Positions 54,832 to 63,395 are shown, counted from the stretch's first letter. The stretch: DNA of 64,000 nucleotides from Acidimicrobiaceae bacterium (GCA_041166745.1 JBEEGH010000002.1:151837-215836), one strand, 5' to 3'. The notes: generated from the letters alone by a model not told the origin. Numbers and translations: made by a program.

Positions 54832-56103
54832 TCAGCTTTGAGGCGCAATGTGCGCCGATATTGTCGGTCCCACCTGCATATCTCGTGGCTCGTCCTGAAC
54901 GTCATAGGAGAACGACGCCAGCGTCTTGGAATTTGCGACCGACTCGCCCACCGCTGGGACCTCATAGGGAAAGATAGGTGATACCGAAAATCGGCAGGCT
55001 GATTCGACCGCGTCCAGAACTCCCGCGTTGCACACAAATACATCGACCCGATACTCGCCGGGCAGCAGCCACGGATGGTGCAAGCGAAGCTCAAACGAGG
55101 ACTCCTCTCCCGAGCCACCCCACGTGTTCTGCAATCGGGAGTCACACTGAGCCACGATCACACCATCGCTTTCGTTAACGACGTGTGCTGCCACAAAGTA
55201 CGGCATCGCGTAACCGCTTGAGCGGGAAGTGACGAACCGTACGATCTTCTCTTCGGCACACCCGTACGACGCGTGCCTCGGCGAGACGTCGACCACACGA
55301 ACCTCGCCCGTCCCAGATCGGCGCCCGCCCTGAGCGCCTGGCCCTGATCGTGCGGCCTCGAGGTAGGCCACAACAGCTTCGGAGGTTGCGCCTACCGTGA
55401 GCACCGCACCATTCGCGAGTACGAGACAACGATGGCAGAGGCTCTCGATAGAGGCCATCTGGTGGCTTACAAACAGCACCGTTCGGCCGTCCGCCGCAAC
55501 CTCGCGCATCTTGCTCAGGCACTTCTTCTGAAACTCCTGATCGCCGACAGCTAACACCTCGTCGACCAGGAGGATCTCGGTCTCAAGGTGTGCGGCAACG
55601 GCAAACGCAAGGCGCACGTACATACCGCTCGAGAATCTCTTCACTGGCGTGTCGAGGAACCGTTCGACGCCGGCGAAATCGACGATGGCATCGAACTGTT
55701 TGGCGATCTCCTTTCGGGTCATGCCGAGGATCGACCCATTGAGGTAGACGTTCTCTCGGCCGGTGAGTTCAGGGTGGAAGCCTGTCCCGACCTCCAGTAG
55801 CGACCCAACCCGGCCCCAAACGTCAATTCGACCGGTCGTGGGTTCGGTGATTCGGGTGAGCACCTTTAGGAGGGTGCTCTTGCCGGCGCCGTTGCGCCCG
55901 ATGACGCCGAGGACCTCACCCTTGTGCACGTCGACGTCGATGTCCTTCAGCGCCCAGAACTCCTCCTTCGGAGCCCGGCGTAGCGGGTGCCGAATTCGGT
56001 CGAGCGCGAGCTCGGCAACCGTGATGTGATCAGTTGTGTTGTGACGAATGATGTAGCTCTTCGAAAGGCCCCGAACAGATATAGCGAGCTCGCTAGATGA
56101 CAT
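54832..56103 (-). CDS. Polysaccharide/O-antigen ABC exporter ATP-binding protein (Wzt/TagH-like) with a C-terminal extension
   Basis: I chose the internal ATG at 56103. Sequence reads GVIGRNGAGKSTLLKVL, ELTGRENVYLNGSILGM, FSSGMYVRLAFAVAAH and ILLVDEVLAVGD. A C-terminal domain of about 170 aa sits in the position of the Wzt glycan-binding domain. Confidence 0.9.
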   Translation of the reverse strand: MSSSELAISVRGLSKSYIIRHNTTDHITVAELALDRIRHPLRRAPKEEFWALKDIDVDVHKGEVLGVIGRNGAGKSTLLKVLTRITEPTTGRIDVWGRVGSLLEVGTGFHPELTGRENVYLNGSILGMTRKEIAKQFDAIVDFAGVERFLDTPVKRFSSGMYVRLAFAVAAHLETEILLVDEVLAVGDQEFQKKCLSKMREVAADGRTVLFVSHQMASIESLCHRCLVLANGAVLTVGATSEAVVAYLEAARSGPGAQGGRRSGTGEVRVVDVSPRHASYGCAEEKIVRFVTSRSSGYAMPYFVAAHVVNESDGVIVAQCDSRLQNTWGGSGEESSFELRLHHPWLLPGEYRVDVFVCNAGVLDAVESACRFSVSPIFPYEVPAVGESVANSKTLASFSYDVQDEPRDMQVGPTISAHIAPQS

Positions 56104-56944
56104 CTGCGAAACGTCTCTCTGCCCGGGTGAAGAACAACAGGCCAACGATGAGGAGCAGCACGGAAGTCGCTACCGAGTAAAGCAGCAGCCCGCTTGATGG
56201 GCGAGTCGAGTCGAGCACGCTCCACCGGACACCTTCGAGTAAGCCGGTGAGTGGATTGAGCTCGTAGACCCGCCGCGCACTTGCCGGTACGGCACTCAGC
56301 GCGTAAGCCACCGGACTCGCGTAGAGCAAGAACTGCACGGCAACCGGCAGCAGGTACTGAACGTCGCGGTATCGGACCATTAGAGCCCCCGCCCCCATGC
56401 CGATGCCAAGCGACGCGGAGACCAGCAGCAGTAGCCACACCGGCAAGAGAACCAAGGCTGGGCCTGGGTGCACTCCGTAAAGGAGCATCAACACGCCCAA
56501 CAGGCCCAGTGAGACACCCACGTCAATCAACGTCGAGAGCACGGTCGACAGGGGCAAGAGCAGCCGCGGGAAGTAGACCTTTGAGACCAGCTGGGCGTTT
56601 CCCACGAGTGAGCTGCTGGCTCGCGTAGTTATCTGGCTGAAGGTTGTCCAGGCGACCATCCCGGTGAGGCTGAAGACGAAGTAGGGCACGCCGGCGGGGC
56701 CTGGCAGATGGGCAACGCTACCGAAAACAAAGGACAGTATCCCCGCGCCCAGCAGCGGTTGAAGGACTACCCAGGCGACACCCAGGGCGGTCTGCCGGTA
56801 CCGCAACGTCACGTCGCGCGCCGCGAACCGAGACAACAATGATCGAAACTCAAGGAGCTCCGCGAGGTTGATTGCAAGCCAACGTCTTCGGGGGGTGATT
56901 GTGAGCCGAGGCTTCATGCTGGCAGGAGTTCGCACGTCGGCCAT
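56093..56944 (-). CDS. ABC-2 type polysaccharide exporter permease (Wzm/TagG-like)
   Basis: 283 aa. Sequence reads ELLEFRSLLSRFAARDVTLRYRQTALGVAWVVLQPLL, with six TM segments. It overlaps the ATPase gene start. Confidence 0.9.
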   Translation of the reverse strand: MADVRTPASMKPRLTITPRRRWLAINLAELLEFRSLLSRFAARDVTLRYRQTALGVAWVVLQPLLGAGILSFVFGSVAHLPGPAGVPYFVFSLTGMVAWTTFSQITTRASSSLVGNAQLVSKVYFPRLLLPLSTVLSTLIDVGVSLGLLGVLMLLYGVHPGPALVLLPVWLLLLVSASLGIGMGAGALMVRYRDVQYLLPVAVQFLLYASPVAYALSAVPASARRVYELNPLTGLLEGVRWSVLDSTRPSSGLLLYSVATSVLLLIVGLLFFTRAERRFADVI

Positions 56945-57034
56945 TACACCGTGACAGCCGCGCTTTGTTGTTCGAACGCTGCTAGCACCATAATTTTGAC
57001 GAACTCGACTTCACTAGATCTCGTTGCATGGCTC

Positions 57035-58132
57035 CTACGCTGCGACAGCGGACCGTTGCCCGCGAACCAGAGCCTGCAGCGAGGTTTCGAACTCCGCACC
57101 GGTGTAGGTCGAGGCATGGGCGCGAAGCGTGACGCTGTCCCAACGCGCGGCCAACAGGTAGCGGATCGCAATGACAATGGCAGGTGCGGTCGCGGTGTCG
57201 AAGAACACCCCCGTCTCGCCGTCCAGCACCGTGTCGACGAACCCGCCACCGCGAAGCACCACCGCGGGCTTGCCGAATGCGTTCGCCTCGAGGGGGGTGA
57301 GTCCATAGTCCTCGTAGGAGGAAGCCACGAGCCCCGCGCTGTTGGCGTAGAGCCAACGAAGCTCGTCGTCGTCGACGCGGCCCAACAAGGTTGTGTTGCT
57401 CCGCGCCAGGTGTTCAAGACGCTCGTGTTCAGGGCCTTCGCCCACGACCACGAGACGCTCGCCGGGCAGTTGACCGAACGCGTCCATGATCACGTCGACG
57501 TTCTTGTAGGGCAGTAGCCGACCGACGCAGAGCACGAAGCCGGGCGCGAGGTCGGCAATCGGCGTCGCGTGGCCTTGCGTCAGGTCGGGCACGGGCGCGG
57601 GCAGGATCTCGGCGTTGATGCCGTACACGTCGCGGATTCGACGCGCGACTGCGGTCGAGCTCGTGAGGAAGCGGTCAGCGGTACCGGCGGCATGGCGATC
57701 CCACCGCCGTAGTGCGGGTGCCGCTGTCTTGAGTCCGGCCTTGACGAGGGTGGAGGCGTTGGCCAGGTAGGTAGTCGCCTCGTCATAGAGCCAGCGGGCC
57801 GGGGTGTAGCAGTAGACGACCTTGCGTCCCGTGGTGCGGGCACCGTGGGCGAAGCCGCTGGAGGAACAGATCGTGACGTCGGCGTCGACGTTGAGGTTCG
57901 AGAACGCGGCCGGATACAGCAGCAGGCCCTTCCGGTGATCCTTCCTTAGCGCTGCGATGCGATTGGTCCAGAGCGGGCGCACGTCGGCATCGCGAAATTC
58001 GGGGAAGGTGGTGTCGGGGTCGTAGAGCGACGTGTACAGCGGCGCGTCAGGAAAGGCGCGCAGCATCGAGAGCACCACTCGCTCGGCTCCGCCCCGCTGG
58101 GTGAGGTAGTCGTGGACGATCGCAACTCTCGT
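57035..58132 (-). CDS. GT4-family glycosyltransferase; conserved N-terminus lacks a canonical start codon (ACG at 58130-58132 where Met is expected; first GTG at 58078)
   Basis: The tracked ORF 57035..58078 begins VVLSMLRAFPDAPLYTSLYDP and contains YEDYGLTPLEANAFGKPAVVLRGGGFVDTV. My own in-frame upstream translation gives T-RVAIVHDYLTQRGGAER, which is the usual GT4 N-terminal Gly-rich motif. No ATG, GTG or TTG occurs between the in-frame stop at 58208-58210 and 58078. Confidence 0.7.
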   Translation of the reverse strand, partial: TRVAIVHDYLTQRGGAERVVLSMLRAFPDAPLYTSLYDPDTTFPEFRDADVRPLWTNRIAALRKDHRKGLLLYPAAFSNLNVDADVTICSSSGFAHGARTTGRKVVYCYTPARWLYDEATTYLANASTLVKAGLKTAAPALRRWDRHAAGTADRFLTSSTAVARRIRDVYGINAEILPAPVPDLTQGHATPIADLAPGFVLCVGRLLPYKNVDVIMDAFGQLPGERLVVVGEGPEHERLEHLARSNTTLLGRVDDDELRWLYANSAGLVASSYEDYGLTPLEANAFGKPAVVLRGGGFVDTVLDGETGVFFDTATAPAIVIAIRYLLAARWDSVTLRAHASTYTGAEFETSLQALVRGQRSAVAA

Positions 58133-58825: not shown

Positions 58826-59812
58826 GTGACGCGCAACTCCGGACGCTCGGTTGACAAGTCCGCGGTTGCAGACCGAGGGGCGGCGTTGTTCAACGCCGCA
58901 CTCGCCCGAGAGGTTCTCGCGGTGTTGCAACGTGCGGGAGTCGACGGTCTCCTGCTGAAGGGCCCGACGACATCGCAGCTGCTCGCCGAGCCTGGCCGCA
59001 CCCGCTCATACGGAGACGTTGACGTTCTCGTTCGGCTGGACGACCTCGTTGCGGCACAAGAGGTGCTTCGACACGCTGGCTTTCATTCGATGTGGGAAGG
59101 TGCGGCCCTCGACGAGCTGAGTGGTCACGCGGTCGACCTCGTGCGCGGTCGAGCGCAGGTAGACCTCCACTGGCGCATTGCCGGCATTCGCCTTCCACCG
59201 GAGCCGGCCTGGCAAGTGCTCTGGGCGCATCGCATTGAGCGCTCGATCCCCGGCGGGGGAACCGCGGTGAGCCTCGACGACCGAGCTGCGCTGTTGCTCA
59301 TCGGCCTGCACGCGGCCGCAGATCCGCATCAGCATCCGAAGGTGATGGACGATCTCACTCGAGCAGTGCGTCTCCACGGGATCGACCGCTGGCGTGAGGC
59401 CGCAAGGTTGGCACAGCAACTCGAGGCTTCTGACTTCTTGGCCAGCGGCCTGCTTCTCGTCGCTGGCGGCGACTCGGTCGTTGACGCCCTAGACCTTCGG
59501 AGGTTCGTCTCCACCGAATCTGTGCTCCGTTCGCACAATCCCCCGCCGCTGGCGCTCGGCATCGAACGACTCGTTCACACGCAAGGTGCGTGGCCCAAGG
59601 TGAAGATCCTCGCCCGCGAACTCGTGCCCACGCCCAGCGGCCTCAGGTACTGGCGACCGAACACGGGTCGCTCGAAATGGGCGCTCGCGCTCGCATACCT
59701 CCAACGGCCGGTGTTCCTTCTTCGATCCCTCCGCCCTGCACTCGCCGCGATACGCCGCGCCCGCCGGACGGCCGCCGCCTCACGCGGCTGCACGTCGTCG
59801 AGCCCCTCTTAG
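58826..59812 (+). CDS. Uncharacterised nucleotidyltransferase family protein (NTP_transf_5-like)
   Basis: 328 aa. Sequence reads LQRAGVDGLLLKGPTTSQLL...RSYGDVDVLVRLDDLVAAQEVLRHAGF...VDLHWRI. The GxxDxD nucleotidyltransferase core and overall pattern match PF14907-type proteins as I recall them. Confidence 0.65.
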   Translation: MTRNSGRSVDKSAVADRGAALFNAALAREVLAVLQRAGVDGLLLKGPTTSQLLAEPGRTRSYGDVDVLVRLDDLVAAQEVLRHAGFHSMWEGAALDELSGHAVDLVRGRAQVDLHWRIAGIRLPPEPAWQVLWAHRIERSIPGGGTAVSLDDRAALLLIGLHAAADPHQHPKVMDDLTRAVRLHGIDRWREAARLAQQLEASDFLASGLLLVAGGDSVVDALDLRRFVSTESVLRSHNPPPLALGIERLVHTQGAWPKVKILARELVPTPSGLRYWRPNTGRSKWALALAYLQRPVFLLRSLRPALAAIRRARRTAAASRGCTSSSPS

Positions 59813-61275
59813 GACCACTCGGCAGGAACGATCTGAGGCGTCGTTAGTCCTTGGATGCGCCGCGCCGCGGAGGTCAAGGCGGTGGCGCGGCTCGCCAGGC
59901 CCATCGTCGCGTCAGCCCCGGCGACTACGGGAGACGCGACACGACCGCTGGCGTCGACGAGAACAGCCGACGGCGTGCCGCGGATTCCGTATGCCCTCCG
60001 TGTGAGCGAGCCGTTGTCGACCCCGATCATCGAGAAGCCAACAGCTCGGTTAGCCTCGACAGGACCGTGCGACACCACGAACAAGCTCGGTCCGTCCTCG
60101 GTCTGCATCTGCTCCCACTCACGCAACCGCGGGAGCAAGGCGCGGCAGAACTCGCACGTCGGGCTCCAGAAAACAAGCAACACCAGGCGACCGCGGAGCG
60201 CCAGGAGCGAGAGCTGTTGTTCTTCACCGTTCACATTCTCAATCGCGATGAGCGGCGCTTCAGCTCCCACCGCGGGGGTCATGCCGACGCCGTCGCCGGC
60301 TTCCAACCCCGCGACTGCGCCTTCAACGAGGTGGCGTATTGCATGCGCGCCGGCCGCGGTCGAGCCGACTCGTCCCGACGGAAAGATCAACACGGCACTA
60401 GGCGTTGCGAGTGCTGCATAGGCGGCCGCCACCTCGTCGCCCCCCTGAAGAAGCACTGGTGCAAGTTCGAACTCTGCGACCTTCCGTTGGTTCTCCTCGA
60501 CGGAGCCGCTACTGACGAGGGCAATCGATAAGACGTCGCCATAAGTCGACTGCCAGTCGGCCAACTCTGGGAGTAACGCACCACAGGGCTCACAGTCCGG
60601 GTCGATGAAAGCGAGCAGAAGCGGTCGGTCGGCGCGCAGCAGCGAGGCCAGATTCGTGTCGGCGCCGGCAAGGTCGGGCAACACGAACGCCGGTGCCCGT
60701 GTCCCGATGGGCAACCCGAACGCGCCCTCTATGAACGGCATCACCTGGGACGGTCGTCGAAGGAGGAAATGAACGACGGCGAGGCCTTCGACGCCGATCG
60801 TCGCTAGCAGCACAACGACCACGGTTCGGGGTGTCTCGTGCGAGAGCGCATAGTCAGCGACGGCCGTGCCGACTCCTGGCGCCTTCGGGCCGAACACGAC
60901 CACCACAAACCCCGCGATCAAAACGAGATTTCGGACAATGGACCGACCGCTGATCGGCGCTTGGCTGAGCGTGCCGAAACAGTTGCAGTTTGGGCGTTTG
61001 CCTTTCCGCAGGTTCACGGCAAGGAGGACCGTGAAGGCGCTCGTCACGGCGAATCCACTTATCGCCGCTGCGCGCGCTGAGCTCTCGAACAGAAGCCCTA
61101 GGACGATCGCCAACTCGATGAACGGGAGGCTGGTTGCGACGGCGCCAGCCATGCGCGTCGGTACGCCCAGGCCGGCCGCGGCCTGCCGAGTGGCACCACG
61201 ATCGGCGAGCTTCGCGAGTGCAGCCGTGGCAAACACTGTCGCGGCCACCACACGAATTACGACAACTGCGGCCAC
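59809..61275 (-). CDS. MauE/DoxX-like membrane domain fused to two thioredoxin-fold (TlpA/MauD-like) CxxC domains
   Basis: 488 aa. The N-terminus has four TM helices ending in KRPNCNCFG, a MauE-type motif. Domain 2 is LLAFIDPDCEPCGALLPELADW. Domain 3 is LLVFWSPTCEFCRALLPRLREW. Confidence 0.8.
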   Translation of the reverse strand: MAAVVVIRVVAATVFATAALAKLADRGATRQAAAGLGVPTRMAGAVATSLPFIELAIVLGLLFESSARAAAISGFAVTSAFTVLLAVNLRKGKRPNCNCFGTLSQAPISGRSIVRNLVLIAGFVVVVFGPKAPGVGTAVADYALSHETPRTVVVVLLATIGVEGLAVVHFLLRRPSQVMPFIEGAFGLPIGTRAPAFVLPDLAGADTNLASLLRADRPLLLAFIDPDCEPCGALLPELADWQSTYGDVLSIALVSSGSVEENQRKVAEFELAPVLLQGGDEVAAAYAALATPSAVLIFPSGRVGSTAAGAHAIRHLVEGAVAGLEAGDGVGMTPAVGAEAPLIAIENVNGEEQQLSLLALRGRLVLLVFWSPTCEFCRALLPRLREWEQMQTEDGPSLFVVSHGPVEANRAVGFSMIGVDNGSLTRRAYGIRGTPSAVLVDASGRVASPVVAGADATMGLASRATALTSAARRIQGLTTPQIVPAEWS

Positions 61276-61285
61276 CGAAATGAAG

Positions 61286-62032
61286 TTACCCGGCCAAGCG
61301 GTCGACGATCATCGACGCGGTCTCCCTCGCATCGCCGCGCGCCCCGCTGTAGGACGTCGCCGACGACACGAGGGTGCGCAGCGCGCGAAGCGTCACCGCA
61401 GGGCGGCTCCGGATGGTCAGGCTATGAGCCAACACGGCCATGAGGGCGTCCGCCGGCCGGATGCGTTGTGGCCGCCAGCTCGCGCCAGATTCGAACGACG
61501 TCAGCACCACCATGTGCGCCTTCACTGCGTCAATCCCCACTTTGAACCCGTCGTACGGATCCGCAAAATACAACGGATCTCGAAACAGCAGTGGCCTCGG
61601 GAACGGATCGATGCGGCCATCGGCGCCAACTACCGCATGTTCGTCTGAGTAGTACGTCCCGCCTGCCTCGACGAGCGCGGCTACAAGCGTCGTCTTTCCT
61701 GAGTGCGATGCCCCAGGGATGACCACCGCCCGGTTTGCGAACGCGACAACCCCAGCGTGGACCATCGCATGGTCGGTTGCGACCTCGACGAGCTGCGTTT
61801 GGAGATCCTCGAAGAACGCGTGCCGCAGCGACTCAGGGCTCTCGGCTGAGGACAGCACGACCCCGTTCCGTCGCAACGAATGAAGCGAACCGCTAGTTAC
61901 GACTGAGTACGAGACGTCCGACACGTGGCAATCCGCGGCGGCGCGCCGAAGATTTCGGCCGAGGGTTGTTAGAACGGGCTCGGGACCGAGCAGCGCGATG
62001 CGGAGAGGACCAACTTGGACGACGTGCTCCAC
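61286..62032 (-). CDS. HPr-kinase-related P-loop protein
   Basis: 248 aa. VHAGVVAFANRAVVIPGASHSGKTTLVAALVEAGGTYYSDEHAVV matches the HprK C-terminal domain P-loop context. It starts 10 nt after the upstream stop. Confidence 0.7.
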   Translation of the reverse strand: MEHVVQVGPLRIALLGPEPVLTTLGRNLRRAAADCHVSDVSYSVVTSGSLHSLRRNGVVLSSAESPESLRHAFFEDLQTQLVEVATDHAMVHAGVVAFANRAVVIPGASHSGKTTLVAALVEAGGTYYSDEHAVVGADGRIDPFPRPLLFRDPLYFADPYDGFKVGIDAVKAHMVVLTSFESGASWRPQRIRPADALMAVLAHSLTIRSRPAVTLRALRTLVSSATSYSGARGDARETASMIVDRLAG

Positions 62033-62042
62033 CGCACCAGAG

Positions 62043-62693
62043 CTAGGCAGGTGCCTTGCACTTACCGGAACCGTTCACGCCGTTGAGGCTGCAGCACAGG
62101 TGTGCGTCTGCCACCGTGACGCCGTCGGCGATGCAAGCAACGCATGTTCCAGTGTCAGGGCTTGGGACGTTGCACCGGCAGTTGCCTGTCCCTGCCGTGT
62201 TCTCGCCTGTACACGGAGAGTTGACCCGATTGCAGGTGCCAGCGCATGTAGCCGCGGCTGCGGGTGTTGGGGCGACGATGGTAGTAATGACCGGAATCGT
62301 GGCTGCCGCCACGCCCATCCGAATGAGGAGCTGCCGCCGGGACAACCGCCGCACTCCCTCTTGTGATTGCTCGGCATCGGACGGCGGGCCCAACAGTAGG
62401 GAGGCGGCGTCCAGCAGCGCGATGGCTTCGACAACGATCTCCAGGGGAAGGTCGCTCTTGGAGTCTCGGGACACCTCCTGTCGGAGCGCTTCGATATCGC
62501 GTGACCCGTCGCAAAGGCGCCACACGGCGGCCGTGGTCTCGTTCAAGTGGTGAACGGTGTCATCTCTCTCGTCGTAAACCACGAGCTCGTCGTCCATCGG
62601 TTCGACCAGAAGCCGTTCTGATCGAGCAGTCGGCCGGTCCGCAGTCATACGCGCATCGTACACCGCGGCATCTTTGCCCTGCACCAGGGGCAT
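62043..62693 (-). CDS. PqqD-like (RRE) domain protein fused to a twin-arginine/TM segment and a C-terminal 10-Cys module
   Basis: 216 aa, with ATG at 62693 preceded by GGGAG. The PqqD-like core is LLVEPMDDELVVYDERDDTVHHLNETTAAVWRLCDGSRDIEALRQEV...IVVEAIALLDAASLL. This is followed by RRLSRRQLLIRMGVAAATIPVITTIVAPTPAAAA. The C-terminal module is TCAGTCNRVNSPCTGENTAGTGNCRCNVPSPDTGTCVACIADGVTVADAHLCCSLNGVNGSGKCKAPA. Confidence 0.7.
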   Translation of the reverse strand: MPLVQGKDAAVYDARMTADRPTARSERLLVEPMDDELVVYDERDDTVHHLNETTAAVWRLCDGSRDIEALRQEVSRDSKSDLPLEIVVEAIALLDAASLLLGPPSDAEQSQEGVRRLSRRQLLIRMGVAAATIPVITTIVAPTPAAAATCAGTCNRVNSPCTGENTAGTGNCRCNVPSPDTGTCVACIADGVTVADAHLCCSLNGVNGSGKCKAPA

Positions 62694-62787
62694 ACAGACG
62701 CTCCCTGCGGATCAGATGGCGAATGACTAGCCCATCGTGACTGGGACGTCATATCCCGTAGAGGTCATTTTGCCGATGTGCCTACAG

Positions 62788-62833
62788 CCGCTCTTGCGGA
62801 ACGTCGAACCCATGAGCAATCCCGCAAGAGCGG
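62788..62833. other. 12-bp perfect stem (CCGCTCTTGCGG / CCGCAAGAGCGG) with a 22-nt loop in the divergent intergenic region upstream of the WxL-like gene
   Basis: Read directly. The left arm is 62788-62799 and the right arm is 62822-62833. It ends 28 nt before the ATG at 62862. Confidence 0.4.
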
Positions 62834-62861
62834 GTTCGATCCCAGCCCAAAGGTGTTTCAC

Positions 62862-63395
62862 ATGAACAAGAAAATGCTCGGAGCGGGCCTGGTCATCGCC
62901 ACCTCGCTTCTCGCCAGTATCAGCCCAGCTTTCGGCGACATCGGCGTCACCGTCGTTCCGGGGACTCGTGCCGCGAGCGCCACCGACCTCGTACTTCCGG
63001 AGGTGAACTCGGAACACGTGTCGCGCTACACGTCCGGCGCCGTGACACTTTGGGCCGACGACAGCACAGGATCCGGCGCAGGGTGGGCCGTCACCGTTCA
63101 GGCTGACGACTTCACCGGTCCCGGAGCCATTCCGGCCGCAAACCTGTCCGCCTATTGGGCAGCCCCGGTCGCGACCATTGCCGGCCAGCCCGTGGACGCG
63201 GACGGCGGGCCTGACATTCAGAGCAGTCTTGCTCTGGGGCCGCTCGACCAGCCGCGGACGCTCATGCAGGCCTTCGAGGGCTTCGGCATGGGGACCTACT
63301 CGCAGCAAGTCGGTCTTCTGCTCAAGGTGCCAGCCGACACATTGGCCGGCAGCTACACGACGGAGTTGACCGTCAGCATCACCGCCGCACCGTAA
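62862..63395 (+). CDS. Secreted WxL-domain-like surface protein
   Basis: I chose the internal ATG at 62862. The signal peptide is MNKKMLGAGLVIATSLLASISPAFG. Also present are GAGWAVTVQADDFTG and the C-terminal GSYTTELTVSITAAP, which resemble WxL-domain proteins. Confidence 0.55.
   Translation: MNKKMLGAGLVIATSLLASISPAFGDIGVTVVPGTRAASATDLVLPEVNSEHVSRYTSGAVTLWADDSTGSGAGWAVTVQADDFTGPGAIPAANLSAYWAAPVATIAGQPVDADGGPDIQSSLALGPLDQPRTLMQAFEGFGMGTYSQQVGLLLKVPADTLAGSYTTELTVSITAAP

Follow-up and report, generated by a model that had tools for sequence, protein, structure and literature searches.

A MauE membrane domain fused to two thioredoxin domains, a probable disulfide relay with a dedicated cysteine-rich client

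A gene on the minus strand of the window (the whole stretch of 64,000 nucleotides analyzed here) joins a MauE-type membrane domain to two thioredoxin (Trx) domains, and it probably encodes a self-contained MauE/MauD-type disulfide relay with a dedicated client. The product may be a dedicated disulfide-folding module, perhaps acting before export, and the idea of dedicated oxidative folding is supported by a family-wide gene neighbourhood of leader-bearing Cys-rich genes. The locus contains the following features:

59809..61275, minus strand: MauE-TM5-Trx-Trx fusion protein, an ORF of 488 aa with a GTG start (Pfam, AlphaFold2, homologs)
60871..61275, minus strand: MauE four-helix membrane domain, aa 1-135 (PF07291, E 3e-22), with K22 in helix 1 and E54 in helix 2
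60973..60987, minus strand: CNCFG, the CXC active-site motif, aa 97-101, in the loop between helices 3 and 4
60757..60831, minus strand: fifth membrane helix (TM5), aa 149-173, from hydropathy and the AlphaFold2 (AF2) model, equivalent to the N-terminal anchor of MauD
60301..60720, minus strand: Trx domain 1, aa 186-325, with CEPC at 60583..60594 and a cis-Pro at T291-P292
59926..60270, minus strand: Trx domain 2, aa 336-450, with CEFC at 60145..60156 and a cis-Pro at T434-P435
61286..62032, minus strand: HprK-related P-loop kinase-like protein, 248 aa (TIGR04352, E 2e-16), with the P-loop GASHSGKT at 61691..61714
62043..62693, minus strand: candidate substrate or precursor, 216 aa, comprising a PqqD (RRE) domain (PF05402, E 1e-6), a twin-arginine signal-like segment and a 10-Cys peptide
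62250..62357, minus strand: twin-arginine signal-like segment GVRRLSRRQLLIRMGVAAATIPVITTIVAPTPAAAA, aa 113-148, with a probable signal-peptidase site past AAA
62046..62249, minus strand: candidate mature peptide, 68 aa with 10 Cys, aa 149-216
58826..59812, plus strand: NTP_transf_5 nucleotidyltransferase, 328 aa (PF14907, E 3e-19)

The MauE domain was matched by Pfam at aa 3-128 (79.6 bits against a cut-off of 27, for a model of 128 positions). The MauE signature K/E/CXCFG has been described previously (bioRxiv 10.64898/2026.03.05.709764), and the fusion contains all of it: a four-helix core whose third and fourth helices flank CXC-F-G, with the Lys in helix 1 and the Glu in helix 2. Residues K22, E54, C97, C99, F100 and G101 were invariant in 41 homologs, which also kept the CxxC and the cis-Pro of both Trx domains. 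In the JGI annotation the protein (P0001) is 447 aa long, its start being set 41 residues too far in, so that helix 1 is lost; we favour the longer form from the GTG because the Pfam match begins at residue 3 and K22 is invariant. In the AF2 model (mean pLDDT 86.9) helices span residues 2-24, 40-62, 64-90, 110-128 and 149-173, and two separate Trx folds follow the last of these. The sequence-only reading had ended the four-helix domain at NCNCFG, but this motif belongs to the loop that joins helices 3 and 4, and there is a fifth membrane helix further on, owing to which the Trx domains and the CXC loop share one side of the membrane. MauE-less relatives begin with the TM5-type anchor.

The fusion contains six cysteines only, C97/C99 (C-N-C, then FG), C228-E-P-C231 and C374-E-F-C377. 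Together with Pfam and AF2, their positions confirmed two redoxin-like domains, each with its own CxxC, while the ORF and the Pfam matches bore out the proposal of a single polypeptide in which a MauE membrane redox domain precedes two CxxC Trx domains. Trx domain 1 matched AhpC-TSA (aa 190-303, E 4e-18) and is also MauD-like; Trx domain 2 matched Redoxin/Thioredoxin_2 (aa 336-447, E 4e-11 to 9e-11) and is ResA-like, its best Foldseek match being ResA 2f9s (E 4e-9, target TM-score 0.81, rmsd 2.3), indicative of a TlpA-like Trx fold. Compared with Paracoccus MauD, the fusion has the same layout of an anchor (TM5, 149-173) and then a Trx domain with CEPC, and the MauD model TIGR02661 matched from aa 172 (model positions 30-172). 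Family-level scores for ResA (NF002854, 67 bits vs 170) and TlpA (NF047696, 22.7 vs 230) were not reached, and Pfam and NCBIfam returned no VKOR or DsbB match in the fusion protein.

The MauE-Trx fusion is a large family of soil bacteria. The architecture was shared by at least 1,395 protein clusters (50% identity, E<=1e-30), a word-index search returned 751 homologs, and a single-protein scan of genome contigs returned one distant cyanobacterial MauE fusion. Moreover, fusions with Trx-superfamily domains account for 8.2% of the MauE entries in InterPro (bioRxiv 10.64898/2026.03.05.709764). By these figures the fusion is not exceptional. Family members carry two to four Trx domains, the first with CxPC and the later ones with CxFC; the first motif is CEPC in the fusion studied here and CGPC in most relatives.

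The fusion gene was confirmed to be co-operonic with a 10-Cys substrate candidate, as the sequence-only reading had claimed, the ORF at 62043..62693 (minus strand) containing the 68-aa 10-Cys module. Gaps between the genes of the operon (PqqD-peptide, HprK-like, fusion) are 10 bp, and the nucleotidyltransferase gene on the plus strand is convergent with the fusion gene, overlapping its end by 4 bp. The AF2 model of the PqqD-peptide protein contains a PqqD fold at aa 20-100 (pLDDT > 93) and a Cys-rich tail for which it is uninformative (pLDDT < 55). Among homologs, an RR/KR motif precedes a hydrophobic segment in 98 of 100 and a Cys-rich tail is present in 91 of 100, the tail being hypervariable and the leader part conserved. 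The family signal has the consensus LSRRxxxRR..LLPxVxSIVAPTPAEAAA, with TC directly after it. By eye, the protein in the window has LSRRQLLIR, an h-region and AAA, with no match to TIGR01409 TAT_signal; its closest homolog (P0122, 51% identity) scored 17.2 bits against a cut-off of 16.7.

The HprK-like protein aligned with the gene (A2) found beside every PqqD-RR-peptide gene examined. Neither it nor the PqqD protein reached equivalog-level scores for the HPr-rel-A system (TIGR04352, 59.9 bits vs 200; TIGR04353, 22.6 vs 35). The operon is conserved, the arrangement PqqD-peptide / HprK-like / MauE-Trx2 recurring at L102 and L103 (a homolog with 48% identity), L005, L025 and L075; members of the NTP_transf_5 family also lie beside PqqD/HprK modules at L016, L028 and L075. 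The PqqD/HprK module is present at only ~5 of the 80 MauE-Trx loci, and no MauE-Trx gene was found within 7 kb of three PqqD-peptide loci (L014, L015, L016); the pairing is thus facultative, which counts against a dedicated relay. Membership of a lasso peptide cluster was rejected because neither an Asn-synthetase-like cyclase nor a transglutaminase-like B2 protease was present within 10 kb on each side in the source contig. Scans of the 64-kb window for tRNA genes and Rfam families gave no matches.

To characterize the family-wide neighbourhood, an HMM of the leader was built from 14 neighbours of MauE-Trx genes and 80 related metagenome loci were scanned. The model matched 44 ORFs in 39 of the 80 loci; 41 of these ORFs lie on the same strand as MauE-Trx, the gap has a median of 170 bp, and Cys makes up 16% (median) of the mature parts. 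Where both flanks were at least 700 bp, a leader-bearing neighbour was present at 27 of 40 loci (about 68-73% of well-flanked loci); the ~30% without one weigh against the relay. The conserved leader (FDELTKALA…SRRxALK) is followed by a Cys-rich mature part, and the domains recognized in these neighbours were Disintegrin (E 3e-57), Stig1, EB and PLA2G12. The leader of Paracoccus MauA, the classical client of MauE and MauD, from the mauE-mauD-mauA cluster (NC_008688.1), also matched the model (E 7e-4 among 12,903 ORFs). Within the 64-kb window the model gave no matches and no obvious false positives; a regular-expression scan of the window for RR-signal and Cys-rich ORFs had given four spurious alternative-frame matches, and the HMM was used instead. 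Beside homologs at L004, L011 and L012, no Cys-rich ORFs overlooked by gene callers were found. The candidate client of this operon, with its PqqD domain, twin-arginine signal-like segment and 10-Cys peptide, is a variant of the family's leader-bearing Cys-rich neighbours.

Taken together, the link between the fusion and Cys-rich proteins proposed by the sequence-only reading holds family-wide. Its dedicated oxidative-folding machine gains support from the neighbourhood of these 39 loci. It had named as adverse a fusion that is common beside unrelated genes, for example those of cytochrome c maturation, with no link to Cys-rich proteins. The fusion is indeed common, but at these 39 of 80 loci it has a leader-bearing neighbour, and no cytochrome c maturation genes were found in the operon or at the eight homolog loci with gene annotation.

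On the membrane side of the CXC loop and the Trx domains there are 10.3 K+R residues, compared with 0.85 on the other side, a bias present in all 41 sequences. Paracoccus MauD has the charge pattern of a reverse signal anchor, as do tandem-Trx relatives that lack MauE. By eye, Paracoccus MauE has a charge bias of the same sense. Two natural fusions from independent lineages run enzyme–leader–substrate (Trx–leader–Cys-rich domain), such that the Trx side precedes a complete twin-arginine leader, and among the family's neighbours such leaders sit on disulfide-dependent folds. The charge bias and the natural fusions would place the Trx domains in the cytoplasm, and judged from these sequence features we lean, at about even odds, to a cytoplasmic face, which would mean oxidation before Tat export. 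This orientation conflicts with the preprint on stand-alone MauE, where the CXC motif is periplasmic by TOPCONS and the protein complements dsbB (bioRxiv 10.64898/2026.03.05.709764). The earlier premise of extracytoplasmic Trx domains is opposed by the two features of the fusion family and favoured by the results for stand-alone MauE. Because the clients carry twin-arginine leaders, cytoplasmic Trx domains would alter the mechanism and would not refute oxidative folding.

A wider proposal, which we hold tentatively and a shade below evens, is that MauE/MauD-type modules, the fusion included, drive oxidative folding of Cys-rich clients with quinone at the cytoplasmic face, followed by Tat export through a MauA-type leader (FDELxKxLA…SRRxALK) or, in this operon, through the PqqD-fused twin-arginine signal. 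The cytoplasm is reducing, which counts against this proposal; engineered systems that combine cytoplasmic disulfide formation with Tat export do exist, and the proposed modules would be their natural counterpart. A literature search on Tat export of MauA, and on Tat and Cys-rich proteins in Actinobacteria, found nothing usable.

Orientation also bears on an unlikely alternative, that the fusion is a general housekeeping disulfide oxidase, in function comparable to VKOR-Trx or DsbB-DsbA fusions, working outside the cytoplasm on the whole secretome after Sec export, with the Cys-rich neighbour incidental. MauE has been proposed as a generalist replacement for DsbB, on the basis of the periplasmic CXC and the dsbB complementation (bioRxiv 10.64898/2026.03.05.709764). 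Consistent with such a role, the nearest solved folds found by Foldseek are all extracytoplasmic (ResA, Etrx, SdbA, CcmG, DipZ-C), the layout of four TM helices, TM5 and Trx parallels that of VKOR-Trx fusions, and the well-flanked loci without a leader-bearing neighbour have no obvious adjoining client. Against it stand the proportion of well-flanked loci that have such a neighbour, which almost always shares the strand and lies no more than a few hundred bp away, and the enzymes fused to leader and client in two independent lineages; the charge bias speaks against an outward orientation.

Still less probable is a pathway of the ResA/TlpA/CcmG type in which the fusion reduces or isomerises (e.g. 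during the maturation of cytochrome c or of copper proteins) and MauE donates the electrons. CEPC and CGPC are typical of reducing thioredoxins and ResA, and an oxidase cannot be read from the Trx motifs alone, which counts against the relay. In NCBIfam and in fold searches the fusion indeed matches ResA best, and according to an earlier report cited in the preprint MauE might be a reductase (bioRxiv 10.64898/2026.03.05.709764). In contrast, the NCBIfam scores are far under the ResA, MauD and TlpA cut-offs and neither CcdA/DsbD nor copper-chaperone genes were found in the operon or at the eight annotated homolog loci. On these scores and the missing cytochrome c genes, a cytochrome c maturation reductase was rejected. 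Furthermore, the neighbours have disulfide-dependent folds (disintegrin, PLA2), and a quinone-linked CXC would thermodynamically be a sink, not a source, of electrons for thiols. A membrane-anchored peroxiredoxin-type antioxidant enzyme is very improbable, and this auto-annotation (JGI), given to many homologs and in line with AhpC-TSA as top Pfam match of Trx domain 1, was rejected because both domains have a Trx-type CxxC at the N-terminus of helix 1 and a cis-Pro, align to MauD, ResA and TlpA rather than to peroxiredoxins, and lie in a context of Cys-rich secreted proteins.

In the preferred reading, a self-contained relay with its own client, the MauE domain would pass electrons from the CXC pair (C97/C99) to membrane quinone, with K22 and E54 as proposed quinone ligands. 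The re-oxidised CXC would then oxidise the fused Trx domains, held on the same membrane face by the fifth helix, and these (CEPC, then CEFC) would introduce, and probably shuffle, disulfides in the client. We infer that this client is the product of the operon's first gene, from which cleavage past AAA would release the 68-aa peptide outside the cell. The direction of electron flow is likewise inferred, from thermodynamics and by analogy with the complementation of dsbB by MauE; for two stand-alone MauE proteins the CXC motif was required for this complementation in E. coli (bioRxiv 10.64898/2026.03.05.709764). If lasso-peptide tailoring is a guide, modification of the precursor in the cytoplasm may fall to the HprK-like kinase and the nucleotidyltransferase, possibly with docking through its PqqD domain. 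A division into oxidase and isomerase between the Trx domains is a candidate idea; what the family shows is a motif pattern that depends on position, CxPC first and CxFC later.

Only recently was MauE put forward as a third enzyme of disulfide formation in bacteria. The locus and the family survey indicate that a large soil-bacterial branch is fused to MauD-like domains and tied to eukaryote-like Cys-rich secreted proteins (disintegrin-, STIG1-, EB- and PLA2-like) and to peptides, and the leader that these share with MauA is a candidate search handle for further clients and for disulfide-rich peptide natural products. The findings raise the question of whether disulfides can form at the cytoplasmic face ahead of export through Tat, which bears on Tat quality control, methylamine dehydrogenase biogenesis and the production of disulfide-rich proteins. 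If true, oxidation at the cytoplasmic face would explain both the twin-arginine leader of the six-disulfide methylamine dehydrogenase small subunit and its need for MauE/MauD. The PqqD–twin-arginine–peptide precursor, always found with an HprK-like kinase, represents an unexplored kind of ribosomal peptide system.

Among known systems, VKOR-Trx and DsbB-DsbA fusions resemble the MauE fusion in architecture only: each joins a quinone-linked core of four helices to one further membrane helix and a carrier with a Trx fold. There is no sequence relationship, and the MauE fusions differ in having a CXC pair in place of CxxC loop pairs, two to four Trx domains rather than one, and dedicated neighbours. 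Stand-alone MauE shares the domain itself with its CXC-F-G/K/E signature, and it too is proposed to be a quinone-linked thiol oxidase working through a Trx-fold partner; the preprint names Trx fusions as a class (the 8.2%). In contrast to the fusion subfamily, it describes generalist, periplasm-facing enzymes, and tandem Trx arrays, dedicated neighbours and a shared leader are not part of its description (bioRxiv 10.64898/2026.03.05.709764); for the fusion subfamily, charge bias and natural fusions favour an orientation opposite to that one.

The HPr-rel-A system (TIGR04352/TIGR04353) and lasso tailoring enzymes likewise bring together a PqqD-type chaperone, an HprK-like P-loop protein and a PF14907 nucleotidyltransferase, and paeninodin and pseudomycoidin are lasso peptides with such HPr-kinase/nucleotidyltransferase tailoring enzymes. 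At the fusion locus, however, both NCBIfam matches are far under the cut-offs, PqqD is fused to the presumed substrate, and no phosphorylation site can be named. DoxX and Trx genes also occur in class I lasso peptide clusters (SviE/SviF) (PMC9266682), and mauE/mauD homologs adjoin precursors with at least 8 Cys in candidate RiPP clusters of Streptomyces (decRiPPter) (PMC7794033). Both place a DoxX/MauE-clan membrane protein and a CxxC Trx protein beside a Cys-rich ribosomal peptide, with a PqqD/RRE domain in the cluster. Unlike these, the fusion locus has no lasso cyclase or B2 protease, its enzymes are fused, and its precursor bears its own PqqD domain and a twin-arginine signal-like segment. 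In the lasso clusters the DoxX/Trx pair, SviF included, is dispensable for disulfide formation (PMC9266682), which counts against the relay.

Finally, the mau cluster of Paracoccus denitrificans differs in that MauE and two MauD-like domains form one polypeptide in the fusion, whose Trx domains are not MauD equivalogs (TIGR02661, 62.2 bits vs 188.6). In addition, the other mau genes are absent at the fusion locus, and the candidate client is not MADH but a PqqD-fused 10-Cys peptide accompanied by an HprK-like kinase and a nucleotidyltransferase. The two systems nevertheless share the MauE family (PF07291; K, E and CXC motif) and MauD-like Trx domains, with an anchor helix and then an 'RQxGxL'-type flank. 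Moreover, the client MauA is small, very Cys-rich and equipped with a long twin-arginine leader, which the leaders of the fusion family's Cys-rich neighbours match.

The gene at 59809..61275 had been described, in a sequence-only reading, as a fusion of a MauE/DoxX membrane domain with two tandem CxxC thioredoxin-fold (Trx) domains, and Pfam domains, cysteine count and an AlphaFold2 model all bear this out; the feature is real. It lies in a tightly packed minus-strand operon with 10-bp gaps between genes:

62043..62693, minus strand: PqqD-peptide protein of 216 aa in three parts (Pfam, AlphaFold2 and sequence reading)
61286..62032, minus strand: HprK-related P-loop protein (TIGR04352, E 2e-16, under the cut-off)
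59809..61275, minus strand: MauE-Trx-Trx gene (ORF, 488 aa)
58826..59812, plus strand: PF14907 nucleotidyltransferase, convergent on the operon end (Pfam)

The fusion protein comprises MauE (aa 3-128; Pfam, E 3e-22), an AhpC-TSA-type Trx fold (aa 190-303; Pfam) and a Redoxin/Thioredoxin_2 fold (aa 336-447; Pfam), and its only six cysteines form C97-N-C99-F-G, C228-E-P-C231 and C374-E-F-C377. In the AlphaFold2 model (41 homologs, pLDDT 86.9) membrane helices span residues 2-24, 40-62, 64-90, 110-128 and 149-173, after which come the two Trx folds and, at the C-terminus, one more helix. NCNCFG, earlier taken as the end of a four-helix domain, sits instead in the loop joining helix 3 to helix 4, with a fifth helix further on. 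ResA and MauD were the nearest NCBIfam models to the Trx domains, with scores far under the cut-offs, and the best superposition was with ResA and other TlpA-like proteins. A shorter JGI start for the gene (P0001) was rejected; the GTG start is favoured because the MauE profile and the invariant K22 fall upstream of that call. JGI annotation of the source contig (L002), a 994-kb contig of JGI metagenome 3300044807, shortens MauE-Trx to 447 aa rather than 488, the PqqD gene to 184 aa rather than 216, and the 328-aa NTP_transf_5 ORF at 58826..59812 to 155 aa.

A word-index search returned 751 homologs of the fusion protein, of which the best 120 all combine MauE with two, three or four Trx domains, with lengths of ~490, ~660 and ~820 aa, respectively. 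An exhaustive search of 1.84 billion cluster representatives yielded 1,395 at E<=1e-30. Named family members derive from MAGs of Thermomicrobiales, Actinomycetota and Acidobacteriia. Motif order is regular: CxCFG near residue 98, CxPC (mostly CGPC) in the first Trx domain and CxFC (mostly CGFC) in all later ones. Little or no variation occurs at K22, at E54, in the CXC-F-G residues, in either CxxC site or in either cis-proline. Many relatives (P0086, P0088, P0090 and many three-Trx members) bear an extra CPNC/CPHC between Trx1 and Trx2, ~110 residues past the first CxxC, which the window protein lacks. A different MauE-like fusion from a cyanobacterial MAG (L001:5596-6936) starts with a glutaredoxin-like domain and ends with a histidine-rich repeat domain; between them, its MauE-like membrane domain has CAC rather than the usual CXC-F-G context.

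Gene neighbourhoods were sampled in 80 metagenome loci fetched with the family alignment, plus eight loci found by exact protein look-up. At many loci, among them L019, L024, L031, L036, L043, L045, L068 and L091, the ORF directly adjoining the enzyme gene opens with the conserved leader sequence M..(S/T)RFDE(L/F)TKALA…SRRQALKTLAA, then a hydrophobic region, an AxA-type site and a very Cys-rich mature part. An HMM of 14 such leaders detected 44 ORFs at E<=1e-3, spread over 39 of the 80 loci; 41 of the 44 lie on the enzyme gene's strand, the median gap to that gene is 170 bp, and the median Cys content of the mature parts is 16%. A leader ORF was present in 27 of 40 loci with both flanks at least 700 bp, and in 11 of 15 with both flanks at least 3 kb. 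Mature parts match Disintegrin (ten repeats, E 3e-57), Stig1, group XII PLA2, the EB module and Cys-rich families of the MXAN_6577 type. Two of the leaders score above the NCBIfam TAT_signal cut-off; for the n-region motif of the leader FDE(L/F)TKALA…SRRxALKxL there is no Pfam or NCBIfam model. In the archetypal mau genes (mauE-mauD-mauA) from Paracoccus denitrificans, MauA (mauA, L097:10116-10682), whose N-terminus reads MLGNFRFDDMVEKLSRRVAGQTSRRSVIGKLGTAMLG…, was matched by the leader HMM with E 7e-4 in a set of 12,903 ORFs. The leaders of the family's neighbours are thus of the MauA type. This gene context supports well the earlier proposal of dedicated oxidative folding: the fusion is common, and many of its loci have a Cys-rich neighbour.

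The window's substrate candidate, unlike these MauA-type-leader neighbours, belongs to a second precursor class. Its PqqD/RRE domain (aa 20-100) folds confidently (pLDDT above 93), the part between PqqD and tail reads GVRRLSRRQLLIRMGVAAATIPVITTIVAPTPAAAA, and the C-terminal tail has 68 aa with 10 Cys. The PqqD domain is common to 100 homologs and is followed by the consensus LSRRxxxRR–h-region–PTPAEAAA|TC and a hypervariable tail. An RR/KR motif precedes the hydrophobic segment in 98 of the 100; 91 have tails with at least four Cys (typically 6-10, in one case 52), and in about nine the tail is of low complexity and has no Cys. The TAT_signal cut-off is passed by the closest homolog, not by the window protein. 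Cys-free precursors (P0124, P0134, P0135, P0138, P0141, P0156, P0191, P0192 and L015:7001-7522) have N-, G-, K- or S-rich tails; at L015, the sole locus of this kind that was inspected, the HprK-like neighbour is retained and there is no MauE-Trx nearby.

The PqqD-peptide gene abuts an HprK-like gene in all five loci examined. In two soil assemblies the three-gene operon, with order kept and spacing similar, surrounds the closest homolog (48% identity), rearranged forms occur in L005, L025 and L075, and PF14907 recurs at L016, L028 and L075. MauE-Trx is absent within 7 kb of the PqqD-peptide gene in L014, L015 and L016. Since only some PqqD-module loci have MauE-Trx, the fusion is an accessory of this module, and the module in turn accompanies only a minority of the enzyme family (about 5 of 80 loci). 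Cell-wall polysaccharide genes flank the operon, as does a gene for a WxL surface protein. This protein (62778..63395, plus strand, divergent) is predicted to be secreted, scores 24.5 bits for PF13731, just below the cut-off of 25, and adjoins a DUF4012/Glycos_transf_4 protein in the source contig. Polysaccharide export and cell-wall glycan genes (Wzz, Poly_export, glycosyltransferases, ABC-2 exporter) repeatedly adjoin PqqD/HprK-like modules (L014, L015, L016 and window 54832..58078).

Anatomy, conservation and neighbourhood statistics were observed directly, and a dedicated disulfide relay is the best-supported reading of the fusion gene. Electrons would pass from client thiols to the Trx domains, to CXC and on to quinone, with the 68-aa 10-Cys peptide as the probable client in the window. 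The CxPC and CxFC domains may divide the labour, and kinase, nucleotidyltransferase and PqqD may act in peptide maturation; lasso precursors are phosphorylated by HPr-kinase homologs, and PF14907 enzymes then glycosylate that phosphate.

The five-helix topology places the CXC loop and the Trx domains on one and the same side of the membrane. Across a 41-sequence alignment, this side (loop 1, CXC loop and the flank past helix 5) has a mean of 10.3 K+R versus 0.85 opposite, a bias present in all 41 sequences (smallest difference 4) and seen by eye in MauE of Paracoccus and in one from Bacillus thuringiensis. Anchors of Paracoccus MauD, a B. thuringiensis Trx-like protein and three tandem-Trx relatives without MauE (P0244, P0278, P0319) lack positive charge on the N-terminal flank and are Arg-rich on the C-terminal one. 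Additionally, in two independent natural fusions the Trx part leads straight into a full leader (n-region motif, RR, h-region, AxA), which a Cys-rich domain follows: three genes on Streptomyces plasmids with products of 509-510 aa (L099:3935-5467, L100:2935-4464, L101:2935-4467) and P0301 (leader E 1.6e-6). The n-region of an export signal remains cytoplasmic. From this and the positive-inside rule, the Trx domains are predicted to be cytoplasmic. These fusions encode MauE, TM5, one or two Trx domains, twin-arginine leader and Cys-rich domain in one ORF, placing enzyme and presumed client in a single chain.

An extracytoplasmic placement is favoured by the reducing cytoplasm, by the nearest solved Trx folds, which are all extracytoplasmic, and by stand-alone MauE, two of which substitute for DsbB in E. 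coli in a CXC-dependent manner and whose CXC loop TOPCONS puts in the periplasm (bioRxiv 10.64898/2026.03.05.709764); the charge bias, reverse anchors and natural fusions speak against it, and we give the cytoplasmic-face model close to an even chance. Cytoplasmic Trx domains had been named as grounds for abandoning the folding proposal; with Tat-type client leaders, the predicted topology would instead shift the timing of oxidation. Together with twin-arginine leaders on disulfide-requiring folds, this topology suggests inner-face oxidation, then Tat export.

As a class, the dedicated MauE-Trx module has precedents in recent publications. In MauE, conserved Lys, Glu and Phe-Gly lie near docked quinone, and Trx-superfamily fusions make up 8.2% of InterPro MauE entries (bioRxiv 10.64898/2026.03.05.709764); mauE, once with mauD, occurs in three Streptomyces candidate RiPP families with predicted precursors of at least 8 Cys (decRiPPter, PMC7794033); and class I lasso clusters contain DoxX and Trx proteins (SviE/SviF) dispensable for disulfide formation (PMC9266682). 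A MauE-plus-Trx disulfide module, sometimes dedicated to Cys-rich peptides, is therefore a known idea. A lasso cluster on B. thuringiensis pBT62A (L098:2471-8279) has stand-alone MauE with an upstream membrane-anchored CxxC Trx-like gene, ABC transporter, PqqD, B2 and Asn-synthetase-like cyclase. Beyond the descriptions found are the tandem MauD-like arrays, the MauA-type leader common to Cys-rich clients of diverse kinds, the twin-arginine precursors that are fused to PqqD and pair with an HprK-like protein, and the orientation paradox of the family. Limited literature searches found no description of a leader common to MauA and MauE-Trx neighbours; the MauA-type leader was reportedly termed an 'unusual leader' in 1991 and listed in 1996 as a twin-arginine signal. 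The fusion proteins correspond to MauE plus MauD(n), and MauA of the P. denitrificans mau system has a leader like those of the family's Cys-rich neighbours.
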